Made by a program: the position numbers and the translations under genes
Notes under the pieces: model-generated
Databases searched by the model: none
Seen by the model: only the letters and a program-made list of their open reading frames with translations
What the model was told of the DNA's origin: nothing
Source: Nitrospirota bacterium
GTDB lineage: Bacteria; Nitrospirota; UBA9217
Direction of reading: 5' to 3'
Length of the DNA: 64,000 bases
Assembly: GCA_963663225.1 (NCBI GenBank)
Contig: OY760142.1
Span: 1,508,509 to 1,572,508 of the forward strand
Part shown: piece after piece, positions 897-44,504 of the stretch
Layout of the letters: each line of letters starts with the position of its first letter
How positions within the stretch are numbered: position 1 is the first letter of the stretch

Positions 897-1138
897 CCAT
901 TGCCTGGGCGCGGAAACACGAGCACGTTTCTCGCTGGTTCAAACTTGCAAATGAACTGTTTCCGCGTCCAGCTACCCTTTTTCTTTACAATTTTCTCCCC
1001 TCGATTATTCCCCGAAAAATTGGGTGACCATGCTTCTGCGCGGCCAGCAGGAAATGCATCTTTTTGTGACATGTTTTACCCCGGTTTGCCAAAATTTCTG
1101 GTTAGCCTTGTTTTTTTGTTTCCTGATGTATCCAGGTT

Positions 1139-1147
1139 GGTGTATAA
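1139..1147 (+). promoter_or_regulatory. extended -10 element (TGTATAAT) upstream of the first REC-PilZ gene
   Basis: tggTGTATAATt lies about 27 nt before the ATG at 1174. No good -35. Confidence 0.3.
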
Positions 1148-1173
1148 TTATGAAAAACGACGCAGGGGTGAGC

Positions 1174-1935
1174 ATGGCAACAAATACATCGCGGAAGAAA
1201 CAAGACACGGTGACGAGATCGGACCAATTTTTATTGATTGTAGAAAGCGAGCCAGATAATCTCAATTACGTGTCCGCGCTTCTCACGCGGTTTAAGTACC
1301 AGACCCGTACTGCAGCAAGTGCTGCCGAAGCCTCGGCAATTATCGCAGAAACAGTACCGCCACTCGTAATTACATCGGCGTTTCTCCAGGATATGGACGG
1401 AGTGGAATTTATCAAACAACTGAAGAACGACCCGCGTACTGCCCACGTTCCCTGTATTGCATTAACCAGAGAAGGAGACCTGTACCAGGAAGCGCGCTGC
1501 TTTGAAGCAGGGGCAGCAGAATGCTTCTCCCACCCGATTTCCGCCGAACTGCTGTACAGGACCGTACAAGCCATAATCGAACCGACGCCACGCAAAAACA
1601 TGCGGGTTCAGACTATGCATCCGGTGAAAGTGACCAATACGCCACGTGACGAGCGGGAAGGTATCTATACTCTGGATCTGTCGGAGCAGGGGATGTTTGT
1701 CCGCACAGCTGAGCCCGCCCCTCTTCATACGCGGCTTTCCCTCCAGCTGGATCTTGAAGGTCAGACGATTCCGTTGGAGGCTGCTGTTTTGTACCAGTGC
1801 AGAGGAGACGCAAACCCGTATCACGAACCAGGGATGGGATTGGGTTTTGTCCAGATAACACAAGAAGATCAGGAATATCTCCGAAAGTTCATACTGGAAG
1901 AAGTCATGCGGGGCATTCCTCACGGGCATGCATGA
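1174..1935 (+). CDS. response-regulator receiver + PilZ domain protein (paralog 1 of 3 in tandem)
   Basis: REC-like N-terminus (LLIVESEPDN...QDMDG). C-terminal PilZ signature RKNMR (RxxxR) and DLSEQG (DxSxxG). Start chosen at the internal ATG with GGGGTGA RBS; the track ORF begins at 1024. Confidence 0.65.
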   Translation: MATNTSRKKQDTVTRSDQFLLIVESEPDNLNYVSALLTRFKYQTRTAASAAEASAIIAETVPPLVITSAFLQDMDGVEFIKQLKNDPRTAHVPCIALTREGDLYQEARCFEAGAAECFSHPISAELLYRTVQAIIEPTPRKNMRVQTMHPVKVTNTPRDEREGIYTLDLSEQGMFVRTAEPAPLHTRLSLQLDLEGQTIPLEAAVLYQCRGDANPYHEPGMGLGFVQITQEDQEYLRKFILEEVMRGIPHGHA

Positions 1936-2015
1936 GAATACTACATAATCAGCCGGATACGATTGCATAAACTCCGGATTGCTGCAATGAAACATGCTTC
2001 ACAAGGGAGTCCATC

Positions 2016-2780
2016 TTGACTGACAACAAATCACAGAAGAAAACTCCGGGCAATCTTGATCGAAAAAGCCGTTTCCTGCTGGTGATAGACAGCAATGCCG
2101 AGAACGTTTCCCACTTATCCGCACTGCTTCGTCGTTTTAATTATCCGACATTCTGTGCTCCCACTGCAAAAGAGGCCCTTGAAATCGCGGCAACCGCAGT
2201 TCCTCTCCTTATTCTTATTTCCCTCGACTGTTTAGAAATGGACGGCTATGATCTCATGCGGCGGTTTAGGGAATCCCCACAGACTGCCGCTGTTCCCTTA
2301 ATTGCATTGAGCAAGCAGCAGGATAGGACTGTAAGAACACGGTGCCTGGATCTGGGAGCAGTCGGCTGCCTCTTTTATCCGATTTCCGCCGAAGCATTGT
2401 ACCGGGTTGTCCAGGTTGCTATAGAAAAAAACCCGCGTTCCTGCATGCGTATTCAGACGAACCAGCCGGTAAAAGTAAATGATATAAAGCATGACAGCCT
2501 GTATGGCGCATATACGCTGGATCTGTCAGAGCGCGGCATGTTCCTTCGAACGGCTAATCCCGCGTCTGCAAAAACGAAGCTTCCGCTTCAACTTGACTTG
2601 AACGGCAGAATTATTAATACCGAGGGAGAAGTGCTCTACAGCTGCAAAGCGGGTGATGAGCCGTATAAAGAACCGGGGATCGGCCTTAAGTTCACCCAGC
2701 TTGAATCAAAAGACCGGGAATATCTCCGGAATTTTATCAGCGAAGAAGTTGCGCGAGATAAGGCAGAGGACGAAAAATAG
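2016..2780 (+). CDS. response-regulator receiver + PilZ domain protein (paralog 2), TTG start
   Basis: Same architecture as paralog 1. RSCMR and DLSERG motifs. AAGGGAG RBS 7 nt before the TTG. Confidence 0.65.
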   Translation: MTDNKSQKKTPGNLDRKSRFLLVIDSNAENVSHLSALLRRFNYPTFCAPTAKEALEIAATAVPLLILISLDCLEMDGYDLMRRFRESPQTAAVPLIALSKQQDRTVRTRCLDLGAVGCLFYPISAEALYRVVQVAIEKNPRSCMRIQTNQPVKVNDIKHDSLYGAYTLDLSERGMFLRTANPASAKTKLPLQLDLNGRIINTEGEVLYSCKAGDEPYKEPGIGLKFTQLESKDREYLRNFISEEVARDKAEDEK

Positions 2781-2877
2781 CGAAATGGTTGCCTGTACTG
2801 TTGCTGGTACGCATGATTTTTGAAAATCCTGCTCGGCGAATCAGTTGTAAAAATCTGTTCATACGAGGGCTATAAGC

Positions 2878-3639
2878 ATGGCGAACTATGATTCTGCCAA
2901 GCCTTTATACCGGCACACGCTTGGAAAACCTACCATCCTTGTTGTGGATGGCGACCTCAACAGCAGCTTTTACATGACCACCCTGCTGAAACGGTTCAAC
3001 TATGAGCCCTGCACGGCAAGAACCGTCGACGAAGCCCTCGACATGACGGTGAGCATGAAAATCTCTCTTCTCATCGTATCGTTGTCTTTAAGGAATATGG
3101 ATGGCCCTGAGATCGTGCAGCGCTTTAAGACGAGTTCGGCAACTGAGACCATTCCTCTTCTTGGACTCTCGAGAAAAAACGATCCGGCCATGATGCACTG
3201 TTGCATGCAAGCCGGGGCGGCTGATTGCCTTGTGCAGCCGGTTCCCGCTGAGCAACTGTACCGAACCGTCCAGAAGGCAACCGAAGCAAAACCACGGAAG
3301 GACATCCGCATTCGGACGCTCCAACCGGTAAAAATAGGCCAATCGTTGCCCGAAACGTTTGAGGCCGCATGCATCCTTGATTTGTCGGAACGCGGGGTGT
3401 TTTTACATGCCATGAAACAACCCCCCGTAAACGCAACACTCTCTCTGCACATTGATCTGAATCACGTTATTATTCCGGTAGAGGCAGTGGTTGTATACAG
3501 TTATCAGGCTCCGGGCGGCCCCTCTCCGAGAGTGGGAATGGGGCTTGAGTTTGTAAAAATCGCCCCGGAAGACCAGGGATATATCCGGCAGTTTATCCGA
3601 GACGAAGTGACGCGGGGGATCGCACCTGTCAGTGCCTGA
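2878..3639 (+). CDS. response-regulator receiver + PilZ domain protein (paralog 3)
   Basis: RKDIR and DLSERG motifs. REC-like N-terminus. Confidence 0.65.
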   Translation: MANYDSAKPLYRHTLGKPTILVVDGDLNSSFYMTTLLKRFNYEPCTARTVDEALDMTVSMKISLLIVSLSLRNMDGPEIVQRFKTSSATETIPLLGLSRKNDPAMMHCCMQAGAADCLVQPVPAEQLYRTVQKATEAKPRKDIRIRTLQPVKIGQSLPETFEAACILDLSERGVFLHAMKQPPVNATLSLHIDLNHVIIPVEAVVVYSYQAPGGPSPRVGMGLEFVKIAPEDQGYIRQFIRDEVTRGIAPVSA

Positions 3640-14993: not shown

Positions 14994-16805
14994 ATGTTCC
15001 ACGAAGAGAGCCCCGCCGCAATTCAGAAAAGGCTTCCCCTGCTGGCAATTTTCATTGTTCTCGGTATTGTGGTTCTTTTTACCCGTCTTTGGTATCTGCA
15101 GGCGGTCCGCGGTGAATACTACTATGAGCAAGCGGAGAACAACCGGATCAGACCGGTAAAGCTCAGGCCGCCGCGGGGAATAATCTTTGACAGAAACGGC
15201 AAGCCGATCGTCGAAAACGTGCTGACGTTCGATATCTCGCTCGTCCCTGAAGACGCCACAGACCTCGATGCGACCATAAAAAGACTGTCTGCAATCGTCA
15301 AAGTCGATCAGAACACAATCCGACAGATACTCGATGATGCTTCTACGGTCAGAACGAAATACGAACCGGTGAAAATCAAGGAAGAAGCACCCTGGGACGA
15401 AGTAACCGTCGTTGAAGCACACCTGGACGATCTGCCCGGCGCCATTATTGAGCCTGAGCATCGCAGGCATTATCCGTATGGCGGAACCGCCTCTCACCAA
15501 CTCGGTTACCTCGGCAAGGTCTCGCAAAGCCAACGCAAGCAGCAGCAAACCGACGTCGGATTGCTTACCGGCCAGGGGGGGCTTGAAAAAATCTATGACA
15601 AAATTTTGCGTGGAACGGCAGGCAGACGCATGATCCAAGTAAATGCGGCGGGCAGAAAAGTCAAGGATCTCGGCATCGTGGAGCCCAGACCGGGTGATGA
15701 CATTTTTCTGACTCTTGATCTTGATGTCCAACGGGCCGCAGAAGAGGCGCTCGGCAGCCGCCCTGGTTCCGTTGTAGCAATGGACCCGAATACCGGGGAA
15801 ATTCTCGCGATAGTAAGTCATCCCAATTTTGACCCGAACCTGTTTCCCCGGGGCATTGCTCCCAAAGACTGGGTTCGTCTGACCAATGATCCTTCGCATC
15901 CGCTTTATAACCGTGCAATTCAGAGTGTCTATCCGCCCGGTTCTGTTTTTAAGATTCTTGTTGCACTGGCAGGACTCGATTCCGGCGTGATCGATCCCGA
16001 TGAAAAAATAACATGCAAGGGCTCTATCAAGAGCGGCAAGCATTCCTTCCGGTGCTGGAAGGGTCATGGCCATGGTCCCATCGCATTTCACCAGGCGCTT
16101 GTCGAATCCTGCGACGTATATTTTTATCTTATGGGTGACCGCATCGGGTTCGACCGTATTGCGCAATACGCAAAAAAGCTGGGACTCGGCAGCCTGACTG
16201 GAATCAATCTCCCTGATGAAAAGGCAGGGTTGATACCAACGACGGACTGGAAAAAGAAACGCACTGGTGAGGCCTGGTATGCGGGAGATTCCTATATCAA
16301 CTCCATCGGCCAGGGGTTTGTTCTTGTCAGCCCTCTTCAGGCCGCGCGAATGATCGGCGCAGTTGCGAACGGAGGCCATCTCTATCAGCCGCTGCTGCTG
16401 AAGCAAACCAGGAACAGAGAAACGGGAGACATTAAAACGTTTTCATCAAAGCATCAGGACGTCGTTCATCTTGACCCTGATGCGCTTGCCGAAGTGAACC
16501 GGGCGCTTGCAGGCGTGGTCGCAGAACCGGGAGGAACCGGACATGCCGCGCAAACGCTCTTTGCAACGGTGGCCGGCAAGACCGGAACTGCGCAGGTCGT
16601 TTCGCAGAAGACCCCGGGCAAAAAGCTGTCAGGAAAAACGCAGGACCATGCCTGGTTCGTTGCATATGCGCCGGTTGAAAATCCCAGAATAGCAGTGGCT
16701 GTTTTGGTCGAGCATGGAGGGCACGGCGGCGGAGCGGCGGCGCCCGTGGCAAAAGCGGTCATTGAGGAGTATATGAAAAATGCAGAGCCAACGATGGTTC
16801 ACTAA
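14994..16805 (+). CDS. mrdA: penicillin-binding protein 2 (peptidoglycan D,D-transpeptidase)
   Basis: Transpeptidase motifs SVFK, SCD and KTGTA. N-terminal TM. Confidence 0.9.
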   Translation: MFHEESPAAIQKRLPLLAIFIVLGIVVLFTRLWYLQAVRGEYYYEQAENNRIRPVKLRPPRGIIFDRNGKPIVENVLTFDISLVPEDATDLDATIKRLSAIVKVDQNTIRQILDDASTVRTKYEPVKIKEEAPWDEVTVVEAHLDDLPGAIIEPEHRRHYPYGGTASHQLGYLGKVSQSQRKQQQTDVGLLTGQGGLEKIYDKILRGTAGRRMIQVNAAGRKVKDLGIVEPRPGDDIFLTLDLDVQRAAEEALGSRPGSVVAMDPNTGEILAIVSHPNFDPNLFPRGIAPKDWVRLTNDPSHPLYNRAIQSVYPPGSVFKILVALAGLDSGVIDPDEKITCKGSIKSGKHSFRCWKGHGHGPIAFHQALVESCDVYFYLMGDRIGFDRIAQYAKKLGLGSLTGINLPDEKAGLIPTTDWKKKRTGEAWYAGDSYINSIGQGFVLVSPLQAARMIGAVANGGHLYQPLLLKQTRNRETGDIKTFSSKHQDVVHLDPDALAEVNRALAGVVAEPGGTGHAAQTLFATVAGKTGTAQVVSQKTPGKKLSGKTQDHAWFVAYAPVENPRIAVAVLVEHGGHGGGAAAPVAKAVIEEYMKNAEPTMVH

Positions 16806-17910
16806 CCTGCCCTGGGGCATGGTCGGGCTTGTTTTCCTGATCGCACTGTTCGGCCTTGCAGCGGTATACAGCGCGACGTATACGGTACGAGGCCCTTCAC
16901 CTCTTTATTACAAACAGATTGTCTGGATAGGCATCGGAATGGTTGTGATGTTTCTTGCGCTTATTCCGGACTACCATACGGTTGGGCGTTACGCATACAT
17001 CCTTTATGCATTGTCGCTTGTGCTGCTTCTGCTGGTCATGATAATGGGAAAGACCGGGATGGGAGCACAGCGATGGCTTTCCATCGGCCCTTTCGCGTTT
17101 CAACCATCGGAACTGGCAAAATTATCCATCACACTCGCGCTGGCGAGGTACTTTGCCGATACTGCAAGACACGGTGGGTATAATCTGAAGGATCTGGCCA
17201 TCCCCGGCGTCATGGTGCTGGTGCCGCTTTTGCTCGTGCTGAAGCAGCCCGACCTCGGCACTGCTCTCATGCTGCTGCTGACGTCCTCGCTTATTGTCAT
17301 GCTTGCGGGGATACATCTGCGGTCGGTCGCCGTGGTTCTCGTTACCGGCTTAGTAATCGCGGCGCTTGTGCTTTTTGTACCGCCCGTGCGCAACAAGATT
17401 TGGGGATCGCTCAAGCCGTACCAGCAGAACAGAATCAAGGCTTTCATTGATCCGAGTTCAGACCGGCTTGGGAGCGGCTACCATGCGAATCAGTCGAAAA
17501 TAGCCGTAGGATCAGGCCAGATTACCGGCAAAGGCTTCCGGAAAGGCACGCAAAGTCAGATGGCTTTCTTGCCTGAGCGCCACACAGATTTTATTTTTGC
17601 GGTCATCGCGGAGGAGACAGGTTTTCTTGGCAGCACGATCCTGATTCTTCTGTATCTGATCCTTCTTCTGGTTGGTGTTGATACGGCAAAAAACGCTAAA
17701 GACCGTCTCGGGGTGCTGATGGCTGGAGGTATCGTATCGATGATATCTCTTTACGTATTCATCAACGTGGGCATGGCGGTAGGTATCGTGCCTGTTGTGG
17801 GAGTGCCGCTCCCGCTTGTAAGTTACGGCGGAACTTCCATCATTACCACCTTCCTTGCTCTTGGCCTGCTTCTCAACATCCAGACGAGGCGGTTTATGCT
17901 GTTTTACTAA
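16780..17910 (+). CDS. rodA: peptidoglycan glycosyltransferase RodA (SEDS family)
   Basis: FtsW/RodA topology. Overlaps the mrdA 3' end by 26 nt. Confidence 0.85.
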   Translation: MQSQRWFTNLPWGMVGLVFLIALFGLAAVYSATYTVRGPSPLYYKQIVWIGIGMVVMFLALIPDYHTVGRYAYILYALSLVLLLLVMIMGKTGMGAQRWLSIGPFAFQPSELAKLSITLALARYFADTARHGGYNLKDLAIPGVMVLVPLLLVLKQPDLGTALMLLLTSSLIVMLAGIHLRSVAVVLVTGLVIAALVLFVPPVRNKIWGSLKPYQQNRIKAFIDPSSDRLGSGYHANQSKIAVGSGQITGKGFRKGTQSQMAFLPERHTDFIFAVIAEETGFLGSTILILLYLILLLVGVDTAKNAKDRLGVLMAGGIVSMISLYVFINVGMAVGIVPVVGVPLPLVSYGGTSIITTFLALGLLLNIQTRRFMLFY

Positions 17911-17984: not shown

Positions 17985-20657
17985 ATGTTTGAACGTTTTT
18001 TGCCGCTGGTAAGCAAGCCGGCGCGGTATATTAATGCGGAAATCAACAGCGTTCGGAAAGACTTTTCGAAGGTCAAAACGAAAGTCTGTCTTTTTTTCCC
18101 CGATACCTATGAAGTAGGCATGTCTCATCTCGGATTGAAAATCCTCTATCACATTCTGAACACCCGGGAAGACACCGCCTGCGAACGGGTGTTTTCCCCA
18201 TGGACGGACTATGAAGAGCGGCTCCGCGCCTCCGAACACAAGCTCGCAAGCCTCGAATCAAACCTGCCTCTTTCTGAATTCGACATTCTCGGAGTTACGC
18301 TTCAATATGAGTTGTCATACTCGAATATTCTGACGGCTTTGGACCTGGCAGGCATCCCGCTCCGTGCAGCAGACAGGACCGACAAACATCCGATTGTTAT
18401 CGCAGGAGGGCCCTGCACTATGAATCCGGGGCCGCTTTCCGATTTTATCGATGTTTTTTTTCTCGGTGATGCGGAAGAGGCCGTGCATGAGCTCGTTGAG
18501 CTTAAACAGCAGCATAAACGCCGACAGGTTTTTCTTGAAACCATTGCCCGTCAGGAAGGGTTCTATGTGCCGGAAATCGGCACGAAGGGTGTTACCAGGA
18601 GGTTTCTTGAAAGTCTCGAGCACGCCTCTTATCCGGCTAAACCGGTGCTTCCATTTTTAAAACCCATACACGACAGAGTCACGGTAGAGGTTGCCAGAGG
18701 ATGTATCCGGGGGTGCCGGTTCTGCCAGGCAGGGATGATTTACCGGCCCTATCGCGAACGAAGTCCTGAAACCGTCAAAGCCCTGCTTCACGACTCCCTG
18801 CGTTGCACGGGATATGAAGAGCTGTCTCTGGCCTCGCTCAGCGCAGGCGATTACACCGGCATCCAACCGCTTGTCGTCGATTTGATGAAGCAATACCATG
18901 ACAGCCGCGTTTCGATTTCTCTTCCTTCTCTTCGCGTGGGAACGCTTACGCCGGAAATGGTGCAGGCCATTGCTGATACACGCAAAACCGGATTTACGCT
19001 TGCGCCGGAAGCGGGAACTGAGCGCCTTCGCAATGTCATCAATAAACCGCTGAGTGACAGCGACCTTTTTCGCGCTGCGGAAACTATTTTTAAAAACGGT
19101 TGGAATGTCCTTAAGCTGTATTTTATGATCGGACTGCCGACGGAAACCGATGAGGACCTGGACGGGATCGTCAGGCTCGTCAACGAAATCTTTGCTCTCG
19201 GCAGAAAAGTGTCGAAGCGCGGGGTGCAGTTGAATATTACGCTGTCCTCGTTTGTTCCAAAACCGCACACCGCTTTCCAGTGGACCGGGCAAGCCTCATT
19301 GGAGGAAATACGCACCAAGCAACGCTACCTGGAACAAAGGCTTCGGCGACGCGGTATTGCGCTAAAACCGCATAATGCTGAAATGAGTCTGCTAGAAGGG
19401 GCTTTTGCGCGGGGTGACAGAACGCTCGGCAGGGTGATTCAGGAAGCGATGCGGATCGGCTGTCGGTTTGATGCTTGGAGTGAATGCTTTGATTTCAGAA
19501 AATGGGAGGAGGCGTTCGCAAAATTTGGGGTTGCAATGCCCGATTATGCGTGCCGTACTTTTAAAAAAGAAGAACCCCTTCCGTGGGAATATGTGCACAG
19601 CGGGATCTCCAAAGAATTTTTCCAGACCGAATATCAACGCGCTTTGGCTGCAGAAACCACGGAAAACTGCAGAATGGAATGCAGACAGTGCGGGCTGGAG
19701 TGCAAGGACGGCGGGACCCCATCATTGGGAAAACCGGCCGCGCTGGCGCCGCATTGGGAATATGTGCACAGCGGGATCTCCAAAGAATTTTTCCAGACCG
19801 AATATCAACGCGCTTTGGCTGCAGAAACCACGGAAAACTGCAGAATGGAATGCAGACAGTGCGGGCTGGAGTGCAAGGACGGCGGGACCCCATCATTGGG
19901 AAAACCGGCCGCGCTGGCGCCGCATTCGGCGCCTCCCAAAACTGCATCTGTCGCGGACTCCCAGGAACAGAAATCAAACGGAATCGAACCCTCTGTCCGA
20001 ATCAGATTTCAATATGCAAAAACCGGCCGCATAAGATTTCTTTCACATCTCGACCTGATGACCCTTTTTCATCGGGCAGCAGTGCGAGCGGAAATCCCCC
20101 TGATGTTTTCCCAAGGGTTCAACCCGCATCCAAAAATCGCTTTTAGTCCTGCCCTATCCGTCGGCATGGAAAGCGAAGCGGAATATTTGGATATGGAAAT
20201 CAGCCATCTCACCAGCCTCGATCACATCACGCAGGCGTTCAGTAATGCATTGCCGAGTGGAATACAAATCAGGAAATCACGCATTATTCCTTTAAAAGCA
20301 CCGTCGCTTTCCGGAAGTATCAGCAGGTATGTCTATACGGTCAGAGTTCCAGCCCCTTATTCTGACATCGTCGATCATCGTTTGACGGCGTTCTCAGCCC
20401 AACCAACAGCGCTGGTGGAAAAAGAAGGGAAAAAAAAGGACATCAAACCGCTTATCGAATCGATAACACACGAACCATCCTCTGGCACGATTATCGCAAC
20501 GCTGCAGGACAGCGCCGAATCCAAAATACGCATTCAGGATGTTCTCAAGATTCTTTTTGATGCATCCCCTGAGGATATTCCATTCTTTGAGATCGTCCGT
20601 ACTGCGCTTTATGCAAAAAAACAGAACCAGTGGATAGACCCTCTGGAAAATATCTAG
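17985..20657 (+). CDS. B12-binding radical SAM protein (TIGR03960-like) fused to a DUF2344/TIGR03936-like C-terminal domain; contains an in-frame 57-aa tandem duplication
   Basis: N-terminal B12-binding-like region, CxxxCxxC radical SAM motif (GCIRGCRFCQAG), and a C-terminal about 230-aa DUF2344-like domain. Sits in the rodA-...-rng neighbourhood. Confidence 0.7.
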   Translation: MFERFLPLVSKPARYINAEINSVRKDFSKVKTKVCLFFPDTYEVGMSHLGLKILYHILNTREDTACERVFSPWTDYEERLRASEHKLASLESNLPLSEFDILGVTLQYELSYSNILTALDLAGIPLRAADRTDKHPIVIAGGPCTMNPGPLSDFIDVFFLGDAEEAVHELVELKQQHKRRQVFLETIARQEGFYVPEIGTKGVTRRFLESLEHASYPAKPVLPFLKPIHDRVTVEVARGCIRGCRFCQAGMIYRPYRERSPETVKALLHDSLRCTGYEELSLASLSAGDYTGIQPLVVDLMKQYHDSRVSISLPSLRVGTLTPEMVQAIADTRKTGFTLAPEAGTERLRNVINKPLSDSDLFRAAETIFKNGWNVLKLYFMIGLPTETDEDLDGIVRLVNEIFALGRKVSKRGVQLNITLSSFVPKPHTAFQWTGQASLEEIRTKQRYLEQRLRRRGIALKPHNAEMSLLEGAFARGDRTLGRVIQEAMRIGCRFDAWSECFDFRKWEEAFAKFGVAMPDYACRTFKKEEPLPWEYVHSGISKEFFQTEYQRALAAETTENCRMECRQCGLECKDGGTPSLGKPAALAPHWEYVHSGISKEFFQTEYQRALAAETTENCRMECRQCGLECKDGGTPSLGKPAALAPHSAPPKTASVADSQEQKSNGIEPSVRIRFQYAKTGRIRFLSHLDLMTLFHRAAVRAEIPLMFSQGFNPHPKIAFSPALSVGMESEAEYLDMEISHLTSLDHITQAFSNALPSGIQIRKSRIIPLKAPSLSGSISRYVYTVRVPAPYSDIVDHRLTAFSAQPTALVEKEGKKKDIKPLIESITHEPSSGTIIATLQDSAESKIRIQDVLKILFDASPEDIPFFEIVRTALYAKKQNQWIDPLENI
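19584..19925 (+). repeat. perfect tandem direct duplication, 2 x 171 bp, in-frame inside the radical SAM gene
   Basis: Copy 1 (19584-19754) and copy 2 (19755-19925) are identical by eye. They encode (P/H)WEYVHSGISKEFFQTEYQRALAAETTENCRMECRQCGLECKDGGTPSLGKPAALAP twice. Confidence 0.9.
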
Positions 20658-20784: not shown

Positions 20785-22290
20785 ATGTCATCCGAGATCA
20801 TCGTAAACGCGGGCCGGGAAGAGACGCGCGTGGCCCTTACAGACAACGGTCTGGTTACGGAAATATATATCGACCGTAAAAAAGACCGCGGCGTTGCCGG
20901 CAATGTATATAAAGGCCGTGTCATGAAAGTGCTGCCCGGCATGCAGGCTTCCTTTGTGGACATCGGACTTGAAAAGTCCGCTTTTCTTTACGTGGGGGAC
21001 GTTTTTGACAGCACCTCGGAATATACCCCGATGATGGACGATGAAGGACTTGAGCTCGAGGTTGAGCCGAAGCGAAAGCGTGCATATGCCACCCAGATTG
21101 AAGACCTGCTTCAGGAAGGGCAGGAGATCCTCGTGCAAGTTTCGAAAGAGCCGATCAGCACCAAAGGCGCGCGGGTCACCACCTACATCAGCATTCCCGG
21201 CCGGTATCTGGTCATGATGCCGGGTGTCAACCATATCGGTGTTTCGCGGCGGATCGAAAACAGCGAGGAGCGAAACCGGCTCCGTGAAATCGTGGGCAGG
21301 CTCCGGAAACCGAACACGGGTTATATCATCCGGACTGCGAGCGAGGGCAGAAGCGAAGAGGATTTTACCGCAGACATCGAGTTTCTCGGCAGATTATGGG
21401 AGAATATTCAGCGGAAAAAAGAACGGACGTCCGCCCCAGCGCTCATGCACAATGAGCTTGACCTCGTTTTCCGCATTATACGGGATATCTTCACCCGGGA
21501 TGTGGACAAAATGATCATCGACTCGTCCGAAGAATACCAGCGAGCAAAAGAATTCATCGATTCCTACCTTCCCCAGCTCAGCAGGCGTGTAAGGCCCTAT
21601 GAGGGCGACGACCCTATTTTTGATCACTACGGTGTGGAAATTGAAATTTCACGCGCTCTTGGCAGAAAAGTCTGGCTCAAGTCGGGGGGATACATTATCA
21701 TCGACCAGACGGAAGCGCTTACCACCATTGATGTTAATACCGGACGATATGTGGGAAAGCGGACGCTGGAAGACACGATCCTGAAAACAAACCTTGAGGC
21801 GGTACGCGAAATCGCCTATCAGTTGCGGCTCCGGAATATCGGCGGCATTATTATTCTTGATTTTATCGATATGGAACGCGAGGACAACCGCCGCAAAGTA
21901 TATTCGGCTCTTCAGGAAGCCCTTGCCATCGACAAGGCAAAAACGACCATATCCCATATTTCACCGATCGGGCTTATAGAGATGACCCGCAAGCGGATAC
22001 GCGAGAGCCTGGGCAGAACGCTTTGCGAACCCTGTCCGTATTGCGATGGGCGGGGCTATATTAAATCGGCACGGACAATCTGTTACGAGGTTTTCCGGGA
22101 AATCAGGCGTGCTTTTTCAAATGCGGATGAAAAGAAAGCTCTGGTGACCGTTAACTCAGTGGTCGCTGATTTGTTGTACGACGACGAGCGGCTGGGAGTT
22201 GAGGAACTGGAAAGGGAATTTCAAAAGAAAATCGTCATCAAGGCCGATCCCAATCTTCATCAAGAACAATATGAAGTCGTTATGGTCTGA
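20785..22290 (+). CDS. rng: ribonuclease G/E family endoribonuclease
   Basis: S1 domain N-terminus. RNase E/G catalytic core (DIDVNTG...IGGIIILDFIDM). C-terminal Zn-link CPYCDGRG. Confidence 0.85.
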   Translation: MSSEIIVNAGREETRVALTDNGLVTEIYIDRKKDRGVAGNVYKGRVMKVLPGMQASFVDIGLEKSAFLYVGDVFDSTSEYTPMMDDEGLELEVEPKRKRAYATQIEDLLQEGQEILVQVSKEPISTKGARVTTYISIPGRYLVMMPGVNHIGVSRRIENSEERNRLREIVGRLRKPNTGYIIRTASEGRSEEDFTADIEFLGRLWENIQRKKERTSAPALMHNELDLVFRIIRDIFTRDVDKMIIDSSEEYQRAKEFIDSYLPQLSRRVRPYEGDDPIFDHYGVEIEISRALGRKVWLKSGGYIIIDQTEALTTIDVNTGRYVGKRTLEDTILKTNLEAVREIAYQLRLRNIGGIIILDFIDMEREDNRRKVYSALQEALAIDKAKTTISHISPIGLIEMTRKRIRESLGRTLCEPCPYCDGRGYIKSARTICYEVFREIRRAFSNADEKKALVTVNSVVADLLYDDERLGVEELEREFQKKIVIKADPNLHQEQYEVVMV

Positions 22291-30952: not shown

Positions 30953-33049
30953 ATGTTGGGATCATTCATAATGAATTTTGTGTATGTATTGATTATTGCT
31001 GCAGGCATCGTTCTGATCTGGCAGGCAATTATTGTCGTTCGCGGGATAGAAATTGCTGTTGTTGAGCGCAGGCTTTTCGGTAAGAAGATGGAGCCCGGCA
31101 GGGTCGTCGCATTGTCGAATGAAGTAGGCATTCAGGCCAGAACGCTCGGCCCAGGTCTCCACTTCTTGATACCCTTTCTTTATAAAGCAAAAAAATATCC
31201 GTTTACTATAATAGCGGATAATGAGGTTGGTATTATAGAATCCATTGATGGCGACCCGATTCTACCCGGCAAAATATTCGCGAAGGTAGTGAGTGGCCAT
31301 AATTCCTTTCAGGACGGTGAAACGTTTATGAAAAATGGCGGGCAGAAAGGCCCCCAAATAGAAATTTTGCCGCCAGGTAACTATCGTATCAACACGGTTC
31401 TTTTTAAAACAATAAAACAGCCAGCTGTTGTGATTAACCGTGGAAAGATTGGTCTTGTTACTTCCATGGATGGTACCCCTATTTCACCTGGACGTCTTCT
31501 GGCAAAAAAAGTAAATGGCCACTCGAACTTTGAAGATGGACAGGCCTTTTTGAACAACGGCGGGCAGAAAGGCCCCCAAATCGAAATCCTTTTGCCGGGG
31601 ACTTACCGCATTAATACGGACCTTTTTCGTATTGAAATACAGGATGCAACAGTTATTCCCGCCAATAAGATTGGATTGGTCACTGCACTTGATGGGCAGC
31701 CGTTGCCGGAAGAAGAATATGTGGCTAAATCCGTTTCCGGACATAACGATTTTCAGGATGCATCAACATTCCTGGCGGCCGGCGGGGAACGCGGTCCTCA
31801 GTTTGATGTGCTGAAACCCGGAACCTATTATATCAATCCGCTGATATTCAAGGTTGAGCTGGATGATGTGGCAGTTGTAGAACGCGGTCAGGTTGCGGTA
31901 GTTGTATCAAATGTGGGAGAAGAACCGGTCCAGATTAGAAGCCTCATTGAACAGACCGCAAAGAAGGAAAACGTCTCAACTGGAAGCGATTCATATAAAG
32001 AAATAGAAAACCGTTTCAATGTAGGGATAGAGCGATACGTTGTGCCAAAAGGATTCCGCGGCATCCAGCAGGAAGTGGCTGGTCCGGGCATCTATTACCT
32101 CAATAGACGCGCTTATATCGTTTATGTCGTCGATACGACCAACATAACTATAGACTGGGACGACTCAAAGGACACTCGCTTCGATCCGCTTAAAGTTATT
32201 TCCCGGGATGGGTTTGAAATCAGCGTATCTGTGAAGGTCGTGATACGAGTAAGGCCGGACCAGGCACCGTATATGGTCGCGAAGATCGGGTCCATAGAAA
32301 ACCTGGTTCTTCATGTTATTCACCCAATGATAGATTCCAGTTTCCGGAACCAGGCTTCGTCCACGTCAGCCATGAATTTCATGCAGGACCGGCAGGATGA
32401 GCAGCGCAAAGCAGAAGACCGGGCGCGAGCGGAACTTGAACGATATCACGTAGAGTGCGTTTCTGTGCTGATTTGCCAGATCAATCTCCCACAGGAGCTG
32501 ATGGATACACAGACGAAGAAGATAATCGCTCAGCAACAACAGGCAATGTATCAGGACCAGCAAAAGGCAGAGCAGGCCAGAATTGCGATGGAAAAAACCC
32601 GCGCAGAGGCTGAACAGCAGACAAATCTTGTGGAAGCTGAAATCGGCGTAAAAATTTCCGAGCAGAATAAAATGAAGGCAATCAGGATCGCCGAAGGAGA
32701 TGCTGAAAGCATTAGATTACGTGCGGAAGGTCAGGCGAAGGGAATTAAGGCTACCGGTGAAGCCGAGGGAGCAAAAATTCTCGCCATGGGCCAAGCCACT
32801 GCCAAGGCGTACGAGCTTCAAAACAAAGCTGTCGGACAGCAAGGGGTCACTGCTATTGAAATTGCGAAGCAAATTTCCGCGGGTAATGTAAAAGTCACTC
32901 CCGATTTTCTGATCCAAGGCGACGGCAATTTGGGAGGACTTCTTTCTGCCTTTCTGACGGGGAAAATTTCTAGCATGTCCAAGCAAGCACTTCCACAACC
33001 AGCGAAAAGCGGGGATAAAGTTGCTTCAGATGAGCCAATGGATAGTTGA
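30953..33049 (+). CDS. flotillin/SPFH (band-7) family membrane protein carrying three internal 74-aa repeats
   Basis: N-terminal TM, SPFH-like core, and a C-terminal Glu/Ala-rich coiled coil (AEQARIAMEKTRAEAEQQ...AEGQAKGIKATGEAEGAKILA) typical of flotillins. GAGGAGAG RBS. Confidence 0.7.
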   Translation: MLGSFIMNFVYVLIIAAGIVLIWQAIIVVRGIEIAVVERRLFGKKMEPGRVVALSNEVGIQARTLGPGLHFLIPFLYKAKKYPFTIIADNEVGIIESIDGDPILPGKIFAKVVSGHNSFQDGETFMKNGGQKGPQIEILPPGNYRINTVLFKTIKQPAVVINRGKIGLVTSMDGTPISPGRLLAKKVNGHSNFEDGQAFLNNGGQKGPQIEILLPGTYRINTDLFRIEIQDATVIPANKIGLVTALDGQPLPEEEYVAKSVSGHNDFQDASTFLAAGGERGPQFDVLKPGTYYINPLIFKVELDDVAVVERGQVAVVVSNVGEEPVQIRSLIEQTAKKENVSTGSDSYKEIENRFNVGIERYVVPKGFRGIQQEVAGPGIYYLNRRAYIVYVVDTTNITIDWDDSKDTRFDPLKVISRDGFEISVSVKVVIRVRPDQAPYMVAKIGSIENLVLHVIHPMIDSSFRNQASSTSAMNFMQDRQDEQRKAEDRARAELERYHVECVSVLICQINLPQELMDTQTKKIIAQQQQAMYQDQQKAEQARIAMEKTRAEAEQQTNLVEAEIGVKISEQNKMKAIRIAEGDAESIRLRAEGQAKGIKATGEAEGAKILAMGQATAKAYELQNKAVGQQGVTAIEIAKQISAGNVKVTPDFLIQGDGNLGGLLSAFLTGKISSMSKQALPQPAKSGDKVASDEPMDS
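31214..31882 (+). repeat. three in-frame tandem repeats (period about 222 bp / 74 aa) within the flotillin-like gene
   Basis: GHNSFQDGETF...GGQKGPQIEILPPGNYRINTVLF, GHSNFEDGQAF...GGQKGPQIEILLPGTYRINTDLF and GHNDFQDASTF...GGERGPQFDVLKPGTYYINPLIF. The copies are diverged, not identical. Confidence 0.7.
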
Positions 33050-38497: not shown

Positions 38498-39853
38498 ATG
38501 AACAGCACGAACCTGAAGAAAATACTCATTGCCTGCATTATTTGTTCAGTATCCATCCTGGCACTGCCTGCTTATGCGGAAGATGAACCTCTTGCGTACT
38601 CCCTGTCCTTCACGGACGCAGAACTGGATGACCTGCTTGCGCCTATCGCGCTCTATCCCGATCCCTTGCTGGCGCAGATGCTGCCTGCTTCCACGTATCC
38701 AACAGAAATAATTGACGCGGATGAATGGCTTCGAAGCGGAGGCACGGTGGCAGGTATTGACGGCCAGAACTGGGACGAATCCGTCAAGGCAATTGCCCAC
38801 TATCCCGACGTCCTGAGGATGATGGCCGACAATATGGACTGGACCGCCAATCTGGGCGATGCTTTTTTGAACCAACCTGAGGATGTGTCAAGATCAATCC
38901 AGCATCTGAGGCGGCAGGCAAGAGACATGGGCAACCTGTCCAGTAATGATAAACAGAGTGTGGACATTCTTGAAGAAGGCAACATCGAAATCATTCCTGC
39001 TCAGCCGCAGTATGTGTATGTCCCGGTGTATGATCCTACCGTCGTGTATTTCAGGCGGCCGTCGCTGAGCATTCCGCCATTTATACTCTTCGGTCCTCCA
39101 TTTCTCCTCGGCGGATGGCTCATCATGGATTTTAACTGGGGGCACCATGAGGTGATTTATCATGGCTGGAACCGTCCCGGCTGGGTCAATCATGCAAGAC
39201 CGTATGTACACGTGACGAATGTATATGTTAACAGAAGCAGGCCCGCCATTCAGCAGCGATGGAGGCATGATGCATCTCACGGCGACCCTGCAAAATATCT
39301 TATGACGCGGCCCAGTGGTCCGAAAGCAGACAGCTACTCCCGTATCGGCGAAGTCAGGGGAAAAGCCGTTGTTACACAACCCAAACCGGCCGGAAGGCTG
39401 TTCGATTCCAAGTCCGGTGTTCACACATATAGTAATCGCGGCAGGGAGAGCCGCGGCATAGTGCAGCAGCAAACGTCTCCATCGGCAATGCCCGGCACCA
39501 GTCCGCGAAGGACCATTCCGACGCCCCGCGTGAACGAGCGACCGACGGCACCTGCTCCCGCAGTTAGTCAACCGGTCCAGAAACCTGCTCAGCAGAGACC
39601 GGCAGGAATCAGCAGTGATAAAAAAATGACGAGCGGCACCGGACCTGCTCGTGAGGCACCACAAACCATAAAGCGGCCTTCGACCGCTTTCGGAGGTTAC
39701 CGCGGTGCAGACGAGGCCAGAGCACAGAGTATGCGCGGCCAGACCAGCCGTCAGAGCAGCGCAGGCGGTGCTTCATCTACCGTCCACCCGCCAAATCGGG
39801 GCGGCAATCCTCCCGCAGGCGGGCATTCATCGGGAGAAAAGCAACGTCGATAA
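38498..39853 (+). CDS. secreted DUF3300-family protein
   Basis: Signal peptide. LLAPIALYPDPLLAQMLPASTYPTEI motif typical of DUF3300. Pro/Ser/Ala-rich C-terminal tail. Confidence 0.55.
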   Translation: MNSTNLKKILIACIICSVSILALPAYAEDEPLAYSLSFTDAELDDLLAPIALYPDPLLAQMLPASTYPTEIIDADEWLRSGGTVAGIDGQNWDESVKAIAHYPDVLRMMADNMDWTANLGDAFLNQPEDVSRSIQHLRRQARDMGNLSSNDKQSVDILEEGNIEIIPAQPQYVYVPVYDPTVVYFRRPSLSIPPFILFGPPFLLGGWLIMDFNWGHHEVIYHGWNRPGWVNHARPYVHVTNVYVNRSRPAIQQRWRHDASHGDPAKYLMTRPSGPKADSYSRIGEVRGKAVVTQPKPAGRLFDSKSGVHTYSNRGRESRGIVQQQTSPSAMPGTSPRRTIPTPRVNERPTAPAPAVSQPVQKPAQQRPAGISSDKKMTSGTGPAREAPQTIKRPSTAFGGYRGADEARAQSMRGQTSRQSSAGGASSTVHPPNRGGNPPAGGHSSGEKQRR

Positions 39854-39905
39854 GAAATGTGAACGTTGGTAAAAGGATATTTTTTGCAGAGAAAGGAAGC
39901 ATATT

Positions 39906-40874
39906 ATGGCGACAAAGACCGGCAAGAAAACATTCCAGAATACTGCGCACGCGGTTGCTTTATTTATAATATGTGCGGCAATAATCACGATCGGGAGCAT
40001 GTCGGTTACAGCGCAACCAACGCAGCAGGTATTCTCGTCTCCGGAGGATGCATTGAAAGAATTGGCAGCGGCAGTTAAAACGAAAGACAAAACCGCGCTT
40101 GCCCGCATATTCGGGCCGTCCGGAGAAGAACTGCGCGCTACTGACGCGGTGCAGGCTGCCGCTGAATTCGAAGAATTTTCGAAATTATTGACGATGAAGG
40201 CAAGCTTGGTTAAAGAGAATGAGTCGAAAGTGGTCCTTTATATAGGAAATGAAAACTGGCCGTTTCCAATCCCGCTGATTAAAACGAACAATCAGTGGGT
40301 TTTTGATACAGAAGCAGGGAAAGAAGAAATTTTGAACCGCAGAATTGGCGAGAACGAGCTGACGGCCATCCTGGTTTGCCGTTCCTATGTAAAAGCCCAG
40401 CGTGAGTACGTACTGAAAGACTGGGATGGTGATGGAATTTTGGCGTACGCACAGAAGCTCCGGAGCGATCCGAACAAAAAGAACGGCCTCTTCTGGAAAC
40501 GGGTTCCGGGCGAACCGGTAAGCCCTCTTGGTGAACTCGTGGCGCAGGCCCGGATGGAGGGATACCGGAAGGAAAAGTCGTTATTTAAAGAAGAGCCGGT
40601 GCCTTTTCACGGCTATTACTTTAACATCCTCACGAAACAGGGCAAACGCGCACCGGGAGGGAAATATAGTTACATTGTAAATGGAAATATGGTCGGGGGA
40701 TTTGCTCTTGTTGCCTTTCCGGCGGACTGGGGCAAATCGGGAGTAATGACTTTTATTGTGAATCAACAAGGCAAGGTGTACCAGAAAAATCTCGGAGAAG
40801 AAACTCTGAAGATGGCCTCGAAAATGAAGATATACGATCCTGACGAGACATGGGCACTCGTTAAGGGCCAATAA
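39906..40874 (+). CDS. secreted DUF2950-family protein
   Basis: Signal anchor. GGFALVAFPADWGKSGVMTFIVNQQGKVYQKNLG motif typical of DUF2950. DUF3300 and DUF2950 proteins commonly sit side by side. Confidence 0.55.
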   Translation: MATKTGKKTFQNTAHAVALFIICAAIITIGSMSVTAQPTQQVFSSPEDALKELAAAVKTKDKTALARIFGPSGEELRATDAVQAAAEFEEFSKLLTMKASLVKENESKVVLYIGNENWPFPIPLIKTNNQWVFDTEAGKEEILNRRIGENELTAILVCRSYVKAQREYVLKDWDGDGILAYAQKLRSDPNKKNGLFWKRVPGEPVSPLGELVAQARMEGYRKEKSLFKEEPVPFHGYYFNILTKQGKRAPGGKYSYIVNGNMVGGFALVAFPADWGKSGVMTFIVNQQGKVYQKNLGEETLKMASKMKIYDPDETWALVKGQ

Positions 40875-41318: not shown

Positions 41319-42575
41319 ATGAGGAAAATCGTCATATGCGCCAGCCTGCTGTTCGTAATCCTTCTTGCGTATTCTGCTTCCCCTGCCTACTCAAAGTCAA
41401 GCCAGCCCCAAATTAACGCTTGTGTTGCGTGTCATACCAGCGACCAAACCTTAAAGAAGCTGTTCATACCCCCCAAGGTCCAGGCCTCGGAAGGAGAAGG
41501 GTGAGCAGGGGTGCCACCGTCAGTTCCGGCGGAACTGATGTACAAGGCGTTCCTGGTTGACAAGGATTTGCTTGATCAGGACGCGCATTTTTCAGAAGGT
41601 TGCAGCCCGTGCCACAAAGGCAATGAAAAAGGAAAAGGCAAGGAAGGGGCACACCGCGGCATGGTAAAACGGCCGTCAGATAATCTTGCTGTCTGCGGAA
41701 AATGCCATGAGGATACTTCGCAGCATTACAAAACAGCTCTTCACTATACCTCAGCAGGCCAGATGCATGGAGTCAAGGCGAGATTCAATGAGAAGGAATT
41801 CAAAGCATTTGATCAGAAAGTCTTTGGAAAATCCTGCAGGAGCTGCCATGCATCCTGCGGAGATTGCCATGTAAAATCTCCATCCATAGGAGGCATCGGA
41901 ACAGGATTTATCAAGGGGCACCAGTTCGTAAAACGTGATGAAGGAAAAACATGCGGTATCTGCCACGGAGGCAGAGTGTATCCGGAATACACCGGCGACT
42001 ATGGCGGCTCAGCAGACGTCCATTACCAGAAAGGAATGCTCTGTCTGGACTGCCATAAAAAATCGGAACTGCATGGCAATGGTACGGCTTATCAAGGAAG
42101 AAAGGAAGTCCAGGGACGGCCTGCCTGCGTTCAATGCCATCCCCGGGGCAGTGAAAAAACGGACACCTCGAAGACCGCCCATGTCCAGCATGGAGACAAG
42201 GTGAGTTGCTATGCGTGCCATTCAGGGGGAACCTACAGAAACTGCTACGACTGCCACCTTGGGAAGGGTGCATCATCAAAACCCGGCTTTATCCTGGGAA
42301 TAGATCCACAGAATAAAAAAACCGTTACTACCCTGAGACTGATACCAACCGTACGGGACACATTCAAACCGGCAGGAATTTCTATGGCAGGTTTTGATGC
42401 GCTCCCGAACTACTGGGGCACGTCGCCTCACAATATCAAAAAGCGCACCGAACGCACCCGGTCGTGTGACGTGTGCCATCAGGAGCACAAGGATTTTCTG
42501 ACAAAAGAAGGATTGATACCAAACGGTTCCAAGGCGAATGAAGGCCTAATTTATGACTTTAAACTCAATAAATAA
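41319..42575 (+). pseudogene. secreted undecaheme c-type cytochrome interrupted by one in-frame TGA (41502-41504). It is either a nonsense or sequencing lesion, or a Sec/readthrough codon.
   Basis: Track ORFs 41319..41504 (signal peptide plus CVACH) and 41511..42575 (10 further CxxCH motifs, no signal peptide) share a frame and are separated only by TGA-GCA-GGG. Confidence 0.6.
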
Positions 42576-42589
42576 AAGGAGGATGCTTA

Positions 42590-43485
42590 TGATCAGGAAA
42601 CGTATGCTGCAAATGCTGGTGTTGGTTCTTATTGTGATGCTGGTGCCCGTGGTGGCGGCAGCACGGGATGCCGCCCCGATTGTATCAACAGACTGGCTCG
42701 AAAAGAACCTGAAAAACAACAATGTGGTGATTATCGATATTCGGAAGGTGGAAGAATACAAGGCAGGCCACATTCCCGGAGCGGTTAATGCGGTCTATGG
42801 AACATGGGCGATTATGAAGGGTGGCCTGAGAAATGAGCTGCCCGCAGCAGATGACTTGTTTGATGCAATTGGTGCCGCAGGTATTGAGCCGACATCAAGC
42901 GTGGTTGTCGTAGGGAATGTTGAAACAACACCCGATCGCACCGATGTTACGAGAGTTGCTTGGACACTCAAGTACGCAGGCATTGAAAATGTTGCACTGC
43001 TCGATGGTGGTTATAAAAAATGGTTGGCGGATAAAAAGACGATATCTACCGACGTGGTGAAAGCAAAAACAAAAACATACAAAGGAAAAATCAATGCCAA
43101 TCTTTTTACGAACAAAGACTATGTGTTAAGCCAACTTGGTAAGGCAACAATTGTCGATGTCAGGGAAAAAGATTTTTACGAGGGCAAGAAAAAATTCGAT
43201 TTTGTAGCTAAAGCAGGAAGAGTCCCCGGCGCAAAGAATTTGCCCACCTCACTTCCTTATACAAAAGAGGGGACATTCAAGGACAAAGCAGAACTTACTG
43301 CGATTGCGGCGAATGTTGTGGGAACCGATGTATCAAAAGAAATAATCACCTATTGTGATACAGGCAAAGTATGTTCAGCCTGGACATTCTTGCTGTCTGA
43401 AGTCCTTGGATACAAGAATGTAAAGGATTACGACGGTTCTATGGAAGAATGGACAAAAGATCCTAAGGCTCCGTTCGAACCGTAA
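42590..43485 (+). CDS. periplasmic tandem-rhodanese sulfurtransferase (thiosulfate/3-mercaptopyruvate sulfurtransferase-like)
   Basis: Signal peptide. Two rhodanese modules, the second with active-site Cys in YCDTGKVCSA. AGGAGG RBS. Confidence 0.8.
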
Positions 43486-43530: not shown

Positions 43531-43730
43531 TCCACCTGCGCTTAGTCCTCAGCGCCATCCTTCTCCGTGTCTTTTGCCACGATGCTTTCCAGCCCCAAAA
43601 TACGCCTTTTATAGCCGAAACAGGTATTGCACAAGAAAAATTAAAGTATTAAATACCCATTTCGGGCGATTTACTTTCACGGAAGACTATGGTATGTCAT
43701 CTGTTAACGATATTGAAGAGGGCATACGAG

Positions 43731-44504
43731 ATGAAAAATGATGGTGAATTTACGCAAGACGGTACCGAACAAAGAAAACATACCCTGCTAATTCTCGACA
43801 GAGAGCCGCAAGAACTTATTCGAATGTCAAAGCTCTTTGAGCGAATAGGTTATCAAACCGCTACAGCTAGGATGGGTTGCGAGGCATTCAAGACAGTAAA
43901 GAAGATAATTCCAAACCTGATTCTTACTGCGATGGACCTTGAAGATATGAGTGGAATTGCATTCATTAGTCAGCTCAGCCAAAACAGAAAAACAGAACAT
44001 ATTCCAATCGTTGTTTTGAAAGGTCCCCAGGATCTTGCCAGGGAACAAGATTATCTTGGCGCTGGCGCAGCGGTTTGCCTGTGTAAGTCGTCTTCGATCG
44101 AAACGATGTATCAAACAATGCAGAGACTCCAGAAGAAAGAATTGCGGGAAAAAATCCGCATTCAAACGCATCACCCTGTTAAGATTGAGACTGCCCCGTT
44201 CTGCGATCATTATGGCATGCACACACTGACGTTATCGGAACGGGGGATGTTTCTTTTCAGCAGGGTGCATGCCCCTGAAAATACCAGGCTTGCGCTCCGT
44301 ATTAATCTACAAGGACTTATCATTGCGGCCGAAGCCAGGGTTTTGTACAATGGCCGGTCACGACGTAGTTCTCATCAGGAGCCCGGGTTAGGGCTTGAAT
44401 TTATTACTATTGGACCTCAAGACCGGGAATGCATACGGACATTCATAAACAATGAAATAATGAAAGACATTCAGCCGAAAATTAGCCTGCAGCTATCTGC
44501 TTGA
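43731..44504 (+). CDS. response-regulator receiver + PilZ domain protein (paralog 4, unlinked to the tandem trio)
   Basis: Same fold order as the trio. REKIR and LSERG motifs. Start uncertain (track ORF starts at 43689). Confidence 0.6.
   Translation: MKNDGEFTQDGTEQRKHTLLILDREPQELIRMSKLFERIGYQTATARMGCEAFKTVKKIIPNLILTAMDLEDMSGIAFISQLSQNRKTEHIPIVVLKGPQDLAREQDYLGAGAAVCLCKSSSIETMYQTMQRLQKKELREKIRIQTHHPVKIETAPFCDHYGMHTLTLSERGMFLFSRVHAPENTRLALRINLQGLIIAAEARVLYNGRSRRSSHQEPGLGLEFITIGPQDRECIRTFINNEIMKDIQPKISLQLSA

Follow-up and report, generated by a model that had tools for sequence, protein, structure and literature searches.

A perfect in-frame tandem duplication of 171 bp within a radical-SAM/DUF2344 fusion gene in the assembled genome of a Nitrospirota bacterium

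Tandem duplications that form at short junctions, as in bacteria, or at microhomologies are joined head-to-tail, with zero to a few nucleotides of homology at the junction, and in proteins the textbook case of an in-frame internal tandem duplication, FLT3-ITD, repeats a peptide beside a domain boundary. The repeat described here shares these traits. It lies in a 64,000-nucleotide stretch of contig OY760142.1 (positions 1,508,509 to 1,572,508 of the forward strand; GenBank assembly GCA_963663225.1 of a Nitrospirota bacterium), which we call the window, inside a gene that joins a radical S-adenosylmethionine (SAM) module of the B12-binding type to a DUF2344 module. Compared with the cases above, it is small (171 bp), it is confined to a single gene, and it is known here from assembled sequence alone. 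The other described source of such a pattern is technical. In genomes described as finished or “complete”, unmerged overlaps are known to leave perfect tandem duplications, and artefacts of this kind, or those left by circularisation, look like the present case in having identical adjacent copies, an abrupt junction and a single assembly that carries them; the difference is that nothing would make such artefacts keep the reading frame or respect domain boundaries.

As for the protein, its closest described relatives form the TIGR03960/TIGR03936 fusion family, whose members are typically 826–861 aa long, score above the curated cutoffs of both models, and carry a CX3CX2C motif and a C-terminal cysteine (Cys) cluster. 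The protein encoded in the window has these scores and motifs too; unlike every other member examined, it has the last 44 positions of the TIGR03960 model repeated. No function is assigned to TIGR03960 or DUF2344 in the searchable literature, and no solved structure of the fusion family was found there.

The repeat and its host gene

An earlier note on the window, made by a model from the letters and a list of open reading frames (ORFs), had described a perfect 171-bp tandem duplication, and this description was borne out by direct reading, a repeat finder, string comparison and Tandem Repeats Finder. Bases 19584–19754 and 19755–19925 (+ strand) are exactly the same over 171 nt (100% identity); Tandem Repeats Finder returns 19584–19926 with a period of 171, 2.0 copies, 100% matches, 0 indels and a score of 686. 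The same note had held that a careful comparison finding the copies non-identical would overturn it; compared copy by copy, they are identical. As the identity at period 171 spans 19584–19926, the junction is ambiguous by 1 nt, a T. The new junction between the copies, GCGCTGGCGCCGCAT followed by TGGGAATATGTGCAC (19740..19770, +), breaks between 19754 and 19755 with this single T of overlap. The repeat is flanked by CCCTTCCG on the left and TCGGCGCCTCC on the right, with 342 bp between them in the window, and string comparison found no homology between the left flank, ending in CCCTTCCG, and the end of the unit (…GCCGCAT). There was no hairpin or quasi-palindrome at the duplication breakpoints, and the promoter and terminator scans gave nothing relevant to the duplication. 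Among direct repeats of at least 30 nt, the 171-nt duplication stands alone within the 64-kb window, and it is thus far beyond chance. The only other tandem array in the window is an imperfect one (21 nt × 2, 41831–41871), inside a multihaem cytochrome c gene.

The carrier of the duplication is an ORF of 890 aa (17985..20657, +). The earlier note had called it a radical-SAM/B12-type gene fused to a DUF2344-like domain, and the profile matches agree with this reading. Pfam places PF19864 (Radical_SAM_N2, the N-terminal, B12-binding-like domain) at residues 50–196, PF04055 (Radical_SAM) at 235–398 and PF10105 (DUF2344) at 672–848, the last with 156.7 bits against a cutoff of 23.8. Among the NCBIfam models, TIGR03960 (B12-binding radical-SAM) scores 744.2 bits against a curated cutoff of 462.3, and TIGR03936 (radical-SAM-associated) scores 189.9 bits against 71.9, over profile positions 1–209 of 209. 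These scores place the protein clearly within the TIGR03960/TIGR03936 fusion family. The canonical CX3CX2C motif, CIRGCRFC (C240, C244 and C247; 18702..18725, +), is read intact in the translation outside the duplication, and its Cys, at residues 240–247, are invariant among 120 homologues.

The duplication is in frame, as had been claimed: the codon of W534 begins at position 19584, and 171 nt make 57 whole codons. Copy 1 (W534–H590; 19584..19754, +) runs on directly from the radical-SAM core, and copy 2 (W591–H647; 19755..19925, +) is 100% identical to it and corresponds to a gap in all the homologues aligned. The protein measures 890 aa as encoded and would measure 833 aa with a single copy. 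The unit had also been placed at the boundary of the two modules, which the profile searches confirm: scanned alone, the 57-aa unit covers positions 560–603 of the 605 of TIGR03960, and its last 13 residues run past the end of the model into the linker. On their own, residues 1–590 give a full TIGR03960 match to position 603/605 (710.6 bits), and residues 648–890 give a full TIGR03936 match (1–209/209). Both domains are therefore left whole, the duplicated piece consisting of the tail of the radical-SAM domain and the start of the linker. The rest of the interdomain linker (S648–S671; 19926..19997, +) is variable and of low confidence, with unconserved alignment columns and a predicted local distance difference test (pLDDT) score below 50; the TIGR03936/DUF2344 domain that follows it (residues 672–890; 19998..20654, +) is complete by Pfam, by NCBIfam and by profile positions 1–209/209.

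The four-Cys motif that the earlier note saw inside the unit is indeed there, and its Cys do not vary in either of the two alignments made (9 and 120 sequences). The cluster reads CRMECRQCGLEC in copy 1 (C562, C566, C569 and C573; 19668..19703, +), where it belongs to the conserved C-terminal tail of the radical-SAM domain, and again in copy 2 (C619, C623, C626 and C630; 19839..19874, +). A pattern DCR-x(2-4)-C-x2-CG recurs across phyla among 78 related loci. The cluster can be taken as the C-terminal tail of the domain, because stand-alone paralogues in two of these loci end a few residues past it. The two loci, L025 (4312–8717) and L052 (6046–9542), come from metagenome-assembled genomes of Thermodesulfobacteriota, and in each the fused radical-SAM/DUF2344 gene is directly preceded by a stand-alone TIGR03960-like paralogue, which in L025 overlaps it. 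Each locus gives two matches to the unit and was considered as a possible second case of duplication; both were rejected, the two matches belonging to two adjacent paralogous genes.

Comparison with relatives

The exact 890-aa protein (P0001) has a record in NCBI and ENA, where a single contig of 3,255,001 bp encodes it. The other 119 best homologues listed are all single-copy for the segment, with lengths of 826–861 aa, and in the two protein alignments (9 and 120 sequences) no other sequence has residues opposite the second copy. Among the matches listed, the closest homologue (P0002) has 833 aa, that is, 890 minus 57, in keeping with the earlier statement that the duplication changes the protein by 57 aa. 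P0002 is encoded by two loci, L081 (JGI metagenome 3300022663, contig Ga0248167_1000074, 203 kb) and L082 (Logan SRR6476075, an independent assembly). Both loci share about 97.6% DNA identity with the window over 14.5 kb, in the same gene order, and contain the unit once. P0002 resembles the protein of the window in its gene order (mreB-mreC-mreD-mrdA-rodA-rSAM/DUF2344-rng), in its sequence (97% protein identity) and in having the same domain models and the same Cys cluster; it differs from it in having the 171-bp segment once, in being 57 aa shorter and in a unit that differs at 9 of 171 nt. The syntenic loci L083 and L084 (about 95%), together with L086 and L087, are single-copy as well. The comparison with orthologs in related genomes, proposed along with the original observation, thus gave one answer, all the relatives examined being single-copy.

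Wider searches added no second case. None of the 78 related loci has an internal repeat of the segment. When the 114-aa double unit was searched with phmmer against 1.84 billion representatives, the 76 matches were all single-copy except the unrelated repetitive protein P0144, and the sensitivity of this test is low, since the representatives stand for clusters at 50% identity. A word-index search of the same double unit against 5.8 billion proteins returned just 82 candidates and one fragment, and was uninformative.

The differences from L081 also help to place the event in time. The unit of the window differs from that of L081 at 9 of 171 sites, and all nine differences are common to both copies. 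Given these nine shared differences and a single-copy L081, the copies derive from the lineage of the window, the event being later than the split from L081; the absence of any difference between the copies is significant because nine are expected at the depth of L081. An origin older than this split was considered and rejected, as the copies do not differ from each other and L081, L083 and L086 each have the unit once. The idea that two strain variants had been joined was rejected as well, both copies sharing all nine differences from L081. The earlier note had concluded that zero divergence means either a very recent duplication or an artefact. The either/or stands; the words “very recent” call for a nuance, since zero differences would bound the age of a duplication only to a fraction of the time since the split from L081, and such an event is not necessarily very recent in absolute terms.

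Selection on the gene was assessed with the same relatives. The ratio of nonsynonymous to synonymous differences (pN/pS) is 0.18 against L081 and 0.14 against L083, with values of 0 to 0.125 for the neighbours, and the gene is thus under purifying selection. With amino-acid changes polarised by outgroups, 16 fall on the branch of the window and 9 on that of P0002, a difference that is not significant. Three changes on the window branch, G84E, A186T and G721S, affect columns that at least 90% of the 120 homologues conserve; together with the excess of changes, they may reflect a slight relaxation of constraint or sequencing errors.

Origin of the second copy and its likely effect

We lean, with modest confidence, towards a genuine, young, lineage-specific and near-neutral in-frame tandem duplication, whose presence in the DNA of the organism, mode of formation and functional tolerance we infer. 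Illegitimate recombination or replication slippage, at a junction with 1 nt of homology, would have placed a second copy of a 171-bp segment directly behind the first, in the same orientation. The copied segment would carry the last 44 residues of the TIGR03960 domain, with the Cys cluster, and the first 13 residues of the linker. Residues 1–590 would still make up a complete radical-SAM domain and residues 648–890 a complete DUF2344 domain, while copy 2 would be an orphan helix and a Cys-rich tail set into the tether between them. Such a change could be tolerated because the 3′ breakpoint lies in a disordered linker of variable length, and its effect on fitness would be near-neutral or mildly deleterious. 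Purifying selection acts on the gene, so that an event which keeps the frame and spares the domains is of the kind that it would be expected to let pass.

The structural prediction is in line with a tolerant linker. An AlphaFold2 model built on 120 homologues (mean pLDDT 77, predicted template modelling score 0.70) docks residues 534–571 of copy 1, including a helix at 543–554, on the core at a pLDDT of 86–88; one has to keep in mind that the choice of the docking copy is not an independent result, as the alignment places the homologues on copy 1. Residues 572–668, which cover the last part of copy 1, the whole of copy 2 and the native linker, have a pLDDT below 50, and copy 2 is modelled with only an isolated helix at 600–612. 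In this model, the low-confidence linker measures about 97 residues instead of about 40, and an orphan helix and a second Cys4 motif lie within it. Linker length varies among relatives, and in one of them, P0003, 5 aa are missing precisely at the 3′ breakpoint.

An assembly artefact in a single-copy organism is a serious competitor, to which we give rather less than an even chance. Three origins are conceivable: the ends of two contigs or reads may have shared 171 bp and been concatenated instead of merged; a circularisation overlap may have been left in and the sequence rotated later; or a read-switch duplication in a long-read draft may have been beyond the reach of polishing, polishers seldom correcting indels of more than 100 bp. 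The abrupt junction, with its 1 nt of homology between two 100% identical copies, fits such an error, and it is found in one assembly only, the relatives, including the one at about 97.6%, being single-copy and 57 aa shorter. These same observations weigh against a genuine duplication, since zero divergence is equally expected from an unmerged overlap or a read-switch error, and several others weigh against it too. In the JGI metagenome contigs, the independent sequence that was searched, neither the 36-mer that spans the junction (sought as an exact match) nor a strain-specific 34-mer was found; the de-duplicated 833-aa protein is absent from a collection of 15 billion; the duplication occurs in no other family member among the 119 best homologues, the 78 loci and the 76 representative matches. 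An artefact would fall in frame by chance one time in three, and a perfect 171-bp repeat should be lost quickly.

Against an artefact stands, first of all, the benign character of the repeat, which is in frame, starts on a codon boundary, ends at its 3′ side in a tolerant linker and leaves both domains whole; by a rough estimate, a random artefact within the gene would be this benign in about 6% of cases, which counts for a real event. Marks of misassembly (Ns, gaps, other duplications) were looked for in the 64 kb and none were found. The assembly is likewise clean nearby, and the 10 small indels that separate the window from L081 in 14.5 kb include none that breaks a coding sequence, nor are there frameshifts relative to the relatives. 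A length of 171 is not a usual k-mer overlap, and the cumulative GC skew shows a monotonic rise across the window, with no sign of an origin or rotation point at the site. Moreover, a single contig of 3.26 Mb suggests that long reads were used, and long reads span 342 bp easily. To return to the genuine duplication, it would be expected to be genetically unstable, recombination between the 171-bp copies collapsing them to a single one; tandem repeats of this size revert readily in this way, which fits a young age.

A real duplication might also have been kept by selection, either as a second metal or iron–sulphur (Fe-S) site or as a longer tether that alters the cooperation between the radical-SAM module and the TruA-like DUF2344 module. 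This we hold to be improbable. In its favour, the duplicated Cys cluster is invariant in the family, so that the new copy would be a full candidate motif for metal binding; purifying selection acts on the gene; and the fact that an unstable 171-bp repeat is the consensus of the genome could hint at selection. Yet the copies have not diverged, the architecture is found in no second lineage among thousands of homologues, copy 2 is modelled as disordered, and the 16 versus 9 changes (not significant), three of them at conserved columns, hint at relaxation and not at a new function. In its most specific form, the idea is that a Cys4 (metal/Fe-S) module has been freshly born and that the tether which joins the B12-type radical-SAM domain to the TruA-like RNA-binding domain has been lengthened. 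To this we give slightly less credence still; if true, it would catch a radical-SAM enzyme in the act of gaining an accessory cluster-binding tail.

The fold of the two modules is of more general interest. By structure, the N-terminal part resembles MgmA (9ccb), AprD4, OxsB and MiaB, that is, B12-type radical-SAM enzymes and methylthiotransferases, and the binding of cobalamin, of [4Fe-4S] and of SAM, as well as enzymatic activity, are predictions from fold similarity only. The DUF2344 part resembles the pseudouridine synthases TruA, Pus1 and PUS3 (Foldseek E about 4e-7, target-normalised TM about 0.5). This resemblance is not new, as DUF2344 is already placed in the pseudouridine-synthase clan of Pfam (PMC7955657). 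The TruA-like domain and the position of the gene between rodA and the RNase G gene may hint at an RNA substrate for this radical-SAM family.

The duplication itself matters little beyond annotation hygiene. Whether it is a mutation or an assembly error, its kind is ordinary and only the place is new. In the case of an artefact, a 171-bp error that needs correction sits in the 3.26-Mb record and in the public 890-aa protein P0001; a real event would be a neat but ordinary instance of a conserved gene that holds a young in-frame repeat and has kept its domains whole. The more interesting question is the gene family, with its combination of radical-SAM and TruA-like DUF2344 modules, and the duplication is of no help in answering it.

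Genomic neighbourhood and other features of the window

The radical-SAM/DUF2344 gene lies between rodA and rng in the window and in four of four close relatives. Upstream, we find mrdA, coding for PBP2 (14994–16805, +), and rodA (16780–17910, +), both identified from their ORFs, with Pfam families that agree in the syntenic loci L081, L083 and L086. Downstream is rng (20785..22290, +), an RNase G/E family ORF whose cluster is named “ribonuclease G” and whose syntenic counterparts match PF10150. The RNase G protein of the window (20785–22290) is 100% identical to that of L081 (8629–10134) despite a synonymous divergence (pS) of about 0.066, which points to a very strong constraint on RNase G compared with the neighbouring radical-SAM gene. 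No Rfam family and no tRNA were found in the window.

Elsewhere in the window, three consecutive paralogous genes (1024–3639, +) encode fusions of REC and PilZ domains of 303, 254 and 253 aa, and a fourth REC-PilZ gene is found 40 kb away (43689–44504, +). Between about 30000 and 36000, the G+C content is about 0.42, against about 0.50 elsewhere in the window, and this stretch, which includes a gene for a 698-aa SPFH/Band 7 protein (30953–33049), may be an acquired segment. Adjacent genes for a DUF3300 protein (451 aa) and a DUF2950 protein (322 aa) occupy 38498–40874 (+); they are followed by the multihaem cytochrome c gene (41511–42575) and then by a gene for a tandem-rhodanese protein (42553–43485).

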